Shown here in pieces: positions 20,701-22,423 of a DNA stretch of 64,000 nucleotides. This DNA is from Escherichia coli (GTDB lineage Bacteria; Pseudomonadota; Gammaproteobacteria; Enterobacterales; Enterobacteriaceae), in assembly GCF_003018255.1 (NCBI RefSeq), contig NZ_CP027440.1; one strand, written 5' to 3'. How positions within the stretch are numbered: the stretch's first letter is position 1; each line of letters starts with the position of its first letter. Position numbers: made by a program.

Positions 20701-22423
20701 ATGCAGTTGAATGCGCAAGCTGAAAAAGTAGCGAAAATCATCGCCGCAAACAGCAGCAATACATAACAGAAACCTGAAACACAAAACGGCAGCCCTTGAG
20801 CTGTAATGCCGATCAGTTAAGGATCAGTTGACCGATCCAGTGGCTGTGTAAGAATCCGGAAACGCTCACTTGTTTCCGGATTTTTTTATGCACATTGGAC
20901 AGGCTCTTGATCTGGTATCCCGTTACGATTCTCTGCGTAACCCACTGACTTCTCTGGGGGATTACCTCGACCCCGAACTCATCTCTCGTTGCCTTGCCGA
21001 ATCAGGTACTGTAACGCTACGCAAGCGCCGTCTTCCCCTCGAAATGATGGTCTGGTGTATTGTTGGCATGGCGCTTGAGCGTAAAGAACCTCTTCACCAG
21101 ATTGTGAATCGCCTGGACATCATGCTGCCGGGCAATCGCCCCTTCGTTGCCCCCCAGTGCCGTTATTCAGGCCCGCCAGCGCCTGGGAAGTGAGGCTGTC
21201 CGCCGCGTGTTCACGAAAACAGCGCAGCTCTGGCATAACGCCACGCCGCATCCGCACTGGTGCGGCCTGACCCTGCTGGCCATCGATGGTGTGTTCTGGC
21301 GCACACCGGATACACCAGAGAACGATGCAGCCTTCCCCCGCCAGACACATGCCGGGAACCCGGCGCTCTACCCGCAGGTCAAAATGGTCTGCCAGATGGA
21401 ACTGACCAGCCATCTGCTGACGGCTGCAGCCTTCGGCACGATGAAGAACAGCGAAAATGAGCTTGCTGAGCAACTTATAGAACAAACCGGCGATAACACT
21501 CTGACGTTAATGGATAAAGGTTATTACTCACTGGGACTGTTAAATGCCTGGAGCCTGGCGGGAGAACACCGCCACTGGATGATACCTCTCAGAAAGGGAG
21601 CGCAATATGAAGAGATCAGAAAACTGGGTAAAGGCGATCATCTGGTGAAGCTGAAAACCAGCCCGCAGGCACGAAAAAAGTGGCCGGGACTGGGAAATGA
21701 AGTGACAGCCCGCCTGCTGACCGTGACGCGCAAAGGAAAAGTCTGCCATCTGCTGACGTCGATGACGGACGCCATGCGCTTCCCCGGAGGAGAAATGGCG
21801 GATCTGTACAGTCATCGCTGGGAAATCGAACTGGGATACAGGGAGATAAAACAGACGATGCAACTGAGCAGGCTGACGCTGAGAAGTAAAAAGCCGGAGC
21901 TTGTGGAGCAAGAGCTGTGGGGTGTCTTACTGGCTTATAATCTGGTGAGATATCAGATGATTAAAATGGCGGAACATCTGAAAGGTTACTGGCCGAATCA
22001 ACTGAGTTTCTCAGAATCATGCGGAATGGTGATGAGAATGCTGATGACATTGCAGGGCGCTTCACCGGGACGTATACCGGAGCTGATGCGCGATCTTGCA
22101 AGTATGGGACAACTTGTGAAATTACCGACAAGAAGGGAAAGGGCCTTCCCGAGAGTGGTAAAGGAGAGGCCCTGGAAATACCCCACAGCCCCGAAAAAGA
22201 GCCAGTCAGTTGCTTAACTGATCGGCATTACAGCCCTTGAGCTGCCGTTTTTTTATTCTGTTAGTTGTGAAACTGAAGCGATTTAGTCACTATCGATCTC
22301 ATCAAATATGGCTCGCTTTGAGATATTCCTCAAGTAAAAAAACACCTCTTCCTGCGATTTCTCACAAAAAAGATTCGTTGACAAAAAGTGACAAAATTAT
22401 GAGATTTCCATCACACATTTTGA

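Follow-up and report, generated by a model that had tools for sequence, protein, structure and literature searches.

In the stretch of Escherichia coli DNA analysed here (the window: 64,000 nt of contig NZ_CP027440.1), a copy of IS4 splits the intrinsic terminator that follows bamD, upstream of raiA. The insertion is ordinary and already annotated, and its points of interest are minor ones: a target-site duplication (TSD) that exceeds published lengths by one base, and a site that IS4 has used more than once. We consider it likely that this is an ordinary IS4 insertion in the bamD terminator, now a fossil because the transposase gene is frameshifted, with a small expected net effect on bamD and raiA.

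Anatomy of the insertion

bamD, IS4 and raiA are all on the + strand, to which the features described below also belong unless noted. bamD (20029..20766; 245 aa) and raiA (22478..22819; 113 aa) were recognised as ORFs and from the PGAP annotation of an identical locus in strain 2014C-3338 (L001). Alignment to the IS4 of NC_000913.3 places the element at 20804..22230 (1427 bp), 37 nt past the bamD stop codon. Its right end is 247 nt upstream of the raiA ATG (22478), in agreement with an earlier note on this DNA, which had placed IS4 about 250 bp upstream of raiA and reading in the same direction. The left inverted repeat (IRL; 20804..20821), TAATGCCGATCAGTTAAG, and the right inverted repeat (IRR; 22213..22230, − strand) match at 18/18 positions and have the TAATGCC start typical of IS4; they are the only two matches to this sequence in the window, where 0.04 would be expected by chance. 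Identical, directly repeated 14-bp copies of CAGCCCTTGAGCTG flank the element, at 20790-20803 and 22231-22244; the match between them cannot be extended on either side.

What is left of the bamD terminator lies outside the element. The left remnant (20783..20803) consists of an A-run (20783-20786), CGG and the left TSD copy; the right remnant (22231..22254) consists of the right TSD copy, CCG and a run of seven Ts (22248-22254). The earlier note was right that IS4 is present, but gave 20782-22257 as its extent, which is slightly too wide because it takes in the T-run and the outer half of each stem arm. Elsewhere, the landmarks of the window are ordinary: an rRNA operon (10024-15039, − strand), the RyfD sRNA (18037-18175), tmRNA (ssrA; 40805-41167) and a tRNA (49052-49124). 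The remaining sequence is syntenic with ordinary E. coli (rrn operon, clpB, pheA-tyrA-aroF, ssrA and the ypjA region), and in this part of the window we found nothing unusual and nothing bearing on the IS4 insertion.

Deleting IS4 and one copy of the TSD restores AAAACGGCAGCCCTTGAGCTGCCGTTTTTTT, or, in longer form, ACACAAAACGGCAGCCCTTGAGCTGCCGTTTTTTTATTC. The reconstructed site starts 17 nt 3ʹ of the bamD stop codon and has an 11-bp stem, a 6-nt loop and a run of seven Us, with a folding energy of -17.3 kcal/mol (z = -5.95) that was matched by none of 200 shuffled sequences. A GC-rich stem-loop followed by a U-run is the form of an intrinsic terminator, and the reconstructed bamD site has this form. 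The 189-nt empty-site reconstruction and the locus of E. coli O157:H7 TR01, which has no IS, are 100% identical; comparison with an IS-free relative was the test that the earlier note had set for its claim that IS4 split the hairpin. The TSD and the exact reconstruction bear that claim out. Uninterrupted sites are the rule in the species, being present in 5007 of 5426 complete E. coli genomes (92% IS-free). The stem is also kept, with differing loops, upstream of raiA in Kosakonia oryziphila (L021) and in a metagenome contig (L025).

The IS4 copy is inactivated

The element is the same as K-12 IS4 (insG; NC_000913.3 4502090-4503515), with a length of 1427 rather than 1426 bp and an identical IRL. 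There are six differences in total, one extra C and five substitutions; of the latter, three are inside the gene and two change CT to TC at 22222-22223. The extra C lengthens a run of five Cs to six (C6; 21150..21155) and breaks the 442-aa DDE transposase ORF into two frames. Hence, the gene (20889..22217) is frameshifted by +1; its initial frame runs to a stop at 21193, and 21147-22217 encodes the remainder. In strain 2014C-3338, PGAP treats the identical IS4 copy as a pseudogene and labels it "frameshifted", and copies 100% identical to that in the window are already annotated as "IS4-like element IS4 family transposase".

The C6 allele is restricted to 76 of 2505 IS4-bearing genomes, and therefore is a real, lineage-specific inactivating mutation. 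The element in the window is an inactivated member of IS4 and not a different element. A programmed frameshift was considered and rejected, given the C5 form in 2467 of 2545 records and the single-ORF organisation of IS4. An assembly artefact was also rejected, given the occurrence of the same junctions in hundreds of independent assemblies.

A second peculiarity of this copy is in the IRR, which reads TC at 22222-22223, as opposed to CT in K-12, in two other E. coli copies at the bamD site (L005 and L006), and in all 120 right ends collected from metagenomes. The K-12-type IRR matches the IRL at 16/18 positions, as compared to 18/18 for the TC form. Conversion between the two ends, or two adjacent substitutions, could account for the change. 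The target of K-12 IS4, like that in the window, fits AAA-N20-TTT; its TSD is 12 bp. In contrast to the K-12 copy, which lies in the yjgZ-nanX spacer, the window copy lies in the bamD terminator, with the C6 allele, a perfect IRR and a 14-bp TSD.

Expected effects on bamD and raiA

Does the insertion alter expression of the flanking genes? The earlier note proposed that splitting the stem probably abolishes termination after bamD, and that read-through or altered expression of raiA is plausible. In a stronger form of this reading, read-through or transcription from IS4 changes expression of raiA. Parts of the anatomy favour it. The native hairpin is split, the left junction folds poorly (-9.1 kcal/mol, z = -0.71) and is followed by no T-run, and IS4 reads toward raiA from 247 bp upstream. 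However, IS4 has a strong, conserved hairpin of its own, AAGAATCCGGAAAC-GCTCACTT-GTTTCCGGATTTTTTT, at 20850..20887, 47-84 nt inside its left end and ahead of any read-through. The arms of this predicted intrinsic terminator are at 20850-20863 and 20872-20885, and a run of seven Ts is at 20881-20887. At -21 kcal/mol (z = -6.95), with a U7 tract, it is stronger than the native terminator, and it is oriented to stop transcripts entering IS4 from bamD. Hence, the proposal that termination after bamD is lost finds no support in the sequence.

Among 11 variants of the IS4 hairpin, the stem core is invariant and the loop is variable, and one G-C pair is replaced by U-A; covariation is thin, with this single compensatory pair and most stem columns invariant. 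The IS4 left-end hairpin was missing from the output of a simple terminator scan; pairing of part of its T-run with upstream A's probably accounts for this.

At the other end of the element, the CGGCA at the end of IS4 can pair with the TGCCG that is left from the 3ʹ arm of the original bamD terminator, and the original U7 follows. The resulting hairpin is weak (-6.4 kcal/mol, z = -0.5), which speaks for the read-through reading, since some IS4-derived transcription could then reach raiA. On the other side of the argument, a residual stem and the original U7 are still in place at this junction, and a scan of the IS4 right end for outward promoter-like sites returned none. Inspection of this junction by eye likewise showed no promoter, whether hybrid or facing outward, and the possibility was rejected. 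Moreover, the frameshift leaves ~1 kb of untranslated RNA that would be prone to Rho termination. IS4 insertions in gal are classically strongly polar, which likewise argues against read-through.

raiA also appears to have its own promoter. A candidate at 22400..22441 consists of a CRP-like box, TGAGA-N6-TCACA (22400-22415), and TATGCT (22436-22441), arranged in class II geometry. It lies ~170 bp downstream of the insertion and is contiguous with raiA. The same elements are conserved in the spacers of L025 and the Kosakonia locus L021, where the box is TGTGA-N6-TCAC. raiA is under cAMP-CRP control (PMC8778775), which the candidate promoter fits. Given this intact CRP box and -10 element, the residual hairpin with U7 and the lack of an outward promoter, altered raiA expression is not supported by the sequence either. 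The persistence of the insertion in 336 of 5426 complete genomes also disfavours a functional effect of this kind. Overall, we think it unlikely that the split stem abolishes bamD termination and changes raiA expression.

It could be argued that the hairpin of IS4 serves mainly in translational or transposition control, by sequestering the start codon or binding transposase or host factors, and that bamD transcripts are stopped elsewhere or not at all. The position of the hairpin is suggestive in this respect: its 3ʹ arm and T-run lie right next to the transposase ATG (20889), and the TTG start chosen by PGAP (20870) is in its loop. In addition, the only + strand promoter-like site, TTGACC-16-AAGAAT with a TG (20828..20855; from a consensus scan only), a candidate transposase promoter, has a -10 element that overlaps the 5ʹ arm. 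There is a resemblance to IS10 and IS50, in which transcripts entering the element are subject to fold-back protection. Nonetheless, a GC-cored stem of 13-14 bp followed by U7 is a canonical intrinsic terminator, and a terminator role and a control role are compatible with each other. We therefore regard a mainly regulatory hairpin that leaves bamD transcripts to end elsewhere as extremely improbable. The same arrangement suggests how IS4 might be expressed with a terminator at its left end: transcripts from its own promoter would lack the 5ʹ arm and escape termination, whereas incoming transcripts would not.

The reading that we prefer, an ordinary insertion with little net effect, can be set out as follows. 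IS4 would have picked the site for its terminator shape, an A-run, GC-rich palindrome and T-run. Cuts placed 3 nt into either arm of the 20-nt spacer would give a 14-bp TSD containing the top of the hairpin, and part of the E. coli population would have inherited the insertion. The native hairpin is destroyed, and a stronger hairpin and U-run are supplied by the element. Since IS4 brings its own hairpin and U-run, bamD transcripts are predicted from folding to end inside the element at ~20887, with 3ʹ UTRs ~85-95 nt longer. A weak transposase transcript would go untranslated for ~1 kb past the frameshift, where it would probably be prone to Rho termination, and would then meet the residual hairpin and U7 at the right junction. 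raiA would retain its own CRP-dependent promoter. As far as sequence and folding can predict, there would be no read-through from bamD, and the insertion is probably near-neutral for bamD and raiA. It would be of little consequence for the biology of either gene, and is most likely silent. More generally, a terminator-like hairpin in IS4 could render gene-end insertions harmless.

IS4 targets terminators at gene ends

The earlier note did not remark on the insertion site as a preferred target, on the frameshift, or on the use of this site by IS4 in other genera. Terminator-type palindromes are the normal choice of IS4, as is apparent from 19 left flanks and 70 right flanks. The left flanks comprise 16 from Kosakonia oryziphila and one from Photorhabdus, all from a left-end scan of a genome collection, together with the K-12 and bamD sites. 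Kosakonia copies were counted by left flank only, as the assembly breaks inside IS4; for the Photorhabdus locus (L023), there was no matching IS4 right end. The right flanks come from a right-end scan of metagenomes, which gave 120 loci with 70 distinct flanks.

On the left, A is found at positions -20 to -16 in 10-16 of the 19 sites, and G at -1 in 16. An A-run is present in 15/19 (20% of control positions), and the top of a palindrome ends at the junction in 10/19 (11% of control positions). The right flanks give a matching picture, with C at +1 in 60 of the 70, C at +4 in 53 and T at +18 in 64. Runs of at least four Ts occur in 54/70, as compared to 10% of controls, and a palindrome top starts at +1 in 50/70, as compared to 11%. 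For 20 of 28 left ends, the nearest long ORF is co-directional with IS4 and ends at the site; for 47 of 66 right ends, the nearest long ORF is convergent and ends at the site. On both sides, the flanking gene ends are usually within tens of bp of the IS4 site. Together, these observations show that IS4 inserts into A-run/GC-palindrome/T-run structures at gene ends, that is, intrinsic terminators. The bamD site is a near-ideal example: AAAA-N20-TTTTTTT, with CAGC at +1 to +4, a T-run from +18 and an A-run from -21 to -18.

Terminator targeting by IS4 has a precedent. Mayaux et al. (1984; Gene 30:137) reportedly derived an AAA-N20-TTT target consensus and described an IS4 copy that had entered the pheS,T attenuator at its terminator. 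In that case, IS4 was inside the terminator stem, as at bamD, where the target is an exact AAA(A)-N20-TTT. The two cases differ in that the pheS,T target was a plasmid-borne regulatory attenuator and the insertion had a phenotype, whereas the bamD terminator is at the end of a gene and no phenotype is indicated. Our compilation of 89 flanks ties IS4 strongly to gene-end terminators, and both supports and refines this consensus of the 1980s. Elements that target REP sequences or other extragenic palindromes (ISPpu9; elements in PMC1525189) similarly use intergenic palindromes as safe landing sites, but they belong to other IS families and their targets are REP elements rather than intrinsic terminators. 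Labels of the form "IS4x" in PMC4591121 are names of σ54 sites, and were set aside as unrelated to IS4.

The published TSD range for the IS4 subgroup is 10-13 bp (PMC2266710, Table 1). The TSD in the window is exact and, at 14 bp, one base above this range; eight other complete sites have TSDs of 11 or 12 bp. At the clearly palindromic sites, a small sample, the cuts are ~3 nt inside the A-run and the T-run, such that the TSD is 6 nt shorter than the spacer (12 bp where N = 18, 14 bp where N = 20). K-12 IS4, at a non-palindromic site with N = 20 and a TSD of 12 bp, breaks this pattern. TSD length may vary with the distance between the target arms.

A broader proposal, which we regard as possible rather than probable, is that IS4 is a dedicated terminator seeker. 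Its cuts would be positioned by the arms of the target, its TSD would flex with the spacer, and its left-end hairpin would replace the terminator that it splits, making bamD-type gene ends recurrent safe sites across the Enterobacteriaceae. If this is true, transcription of the upstream gene would still end properly after a co-directional IS4 insertion. As a check on this idea, we looked for bias in the orientation of IS4 relative to flanking genes, and none can be claimed: a flanking gene ends at the site, within ~400 bp, in ~71% of cases on the left and likewise in ~71% on the right.

Distribution and recurrence of the insertion

The left and right junctions are each present in exactly 336 of 5426 complete E. 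coli genomes (~6%). At least three haplotypes have IS4 at the bamD site, in the same position and orientation: the frameshifted form (the window and L001), and forms with an intact transposase in strains 789 (L005) and FDAARGOS_497 (L006). Strain 104, like 2014C-3338, matches the window exactly at this locus. The IS4 copies of strains 789 and FDAARGOS_497 differ from that in the window at 6-13 positions. With 336 carriers among 5426 genomes, of which at most 76 have the frameshift allele, the insertion is usable as a lineage marker.

In strain FDAARGOS_497, the 3ʹ half of bamD is ~8% divergent up to the boundary of IS4 (equivalent to 20281-20781 of the window). The IS4 copy itself is nearly identical to that in the window, and the raiA side is identical. 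This pattern suggests recombination at or near the element, with a tract that would end at the insertion.

Outside this set of genomes, IS4 also sits in the orthologous bamD terminator of two other enterobacteria. In an enterobacterial metagenome contig (Ga0160473_100742; L025 98-681), IS4 is upstream of a raiA whose product is 93% identical, in the same orientation as in the window. In Kosakonia oryziphila (L021 9433-10054), where RaiA is 89% identical, IS4 is inverted. The bamD terminator is thus a cross-genus hot spot for IS4. A literature search for reports of IS4 at bamD-raiA found nothing usable. E. coli GmM077 carries a copy of IS200C directly 3ʹ of the T-run of the same terminator (L003 2297-3004); therefore, two unrelated IS families use this one spot.

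Could the insertion be adaptive, and kept for an effect on the regulation of raiA or bamD, such as a longer bamD 3ʹ UTR or the insulation of raiA from upstream transcription? Its presence in 336 genomes and at least three haplotypes, with both intact and frameshifted transposase genes, might suggest so, as might the occupation of the same terminator in two other enterobacterial backgrounds and the adjoining IS200C in another E. coli. However, sequence-driven target choice by IS4 fully explains the recurrence, because the bamD site matches the IS4 consensus almost ideally. The Kosakonia copy is inverted, and therefore a common regulatory outcome is not expected. Furthermore, 92% of the E. coli genomes lack the insertion. 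We thus consider selection for modified raiA or bamD regulation very unlikely.

Related insertions

IS200 and IS200C elements resemble IS4 in also being found at terminator hairpins. They are otherwise unlike IS4, having a HUH/Y1 transposase that acts by a single-stranded DNA mechanism, no TSD and no inverted repeats, and they sit beside the hairpin, whereas IS4 is inside it. The left-end hairpin of IS200 is a terminator that protects against impinging transcription. In one metagenome contig (OBWP01000060.1; L073), IS4 is inside the left-end hairpin of an IS200C copy, with an 11-bp TSD, CAGCTAGGCTG. In this instance, the terminator-like hairpin of one IS served as the target for another.

The adhE terminator of strains UTI89 and CD306 (L145 and L146, ~806-1950) holds a relic of IS4 in the adhE-tdk spacer, probably the same as insZ of K-12. 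The site reads AAACGG|CCCCTTCTGGGG|CCGTTTTTT, with a 12-bp TSD, CCCCTTCTGGGG, and each end of the relic carries an inverted repeat of the AG/CT form. Like the copy at bamD, it is a pseudogene in the terminator of the upstream gene, and is co-directional with that gene. Unlike the copy at bamD, it has a TSD of 12 bp, an internal deletion of ~270 bp and ~2.3% divergence from IS4 (~97.7% identity).

Several further IS4 copies came to light in these comparisons. Among the metagenome loci L063, L048, L071, L114, L121 and L142, there are complete copies with non-matching flanks and no TSD; recombination between IS4 copies and chimeric assembly are both possible explanations. A 265-bp contig assigned to Methylobacterium mesophilicum NBRC 15688 (L024) is identical to the left junction of K-12 IS4 at the yjgZ-nanX site, and most likely represents contamination of that assembly with E. 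coli DNA. Lastly, Kosakonia oryziphila REICA_142 has at least 16 contigs with an IS4 left end (L007-L022), most of them near the end of the contig. The first 35 bp of these left ends are identical to E. coli IS4, a pattern that would indicate recent transfer of IS4 to, and a burst of transposition in, this plant-associated Kosakonia.
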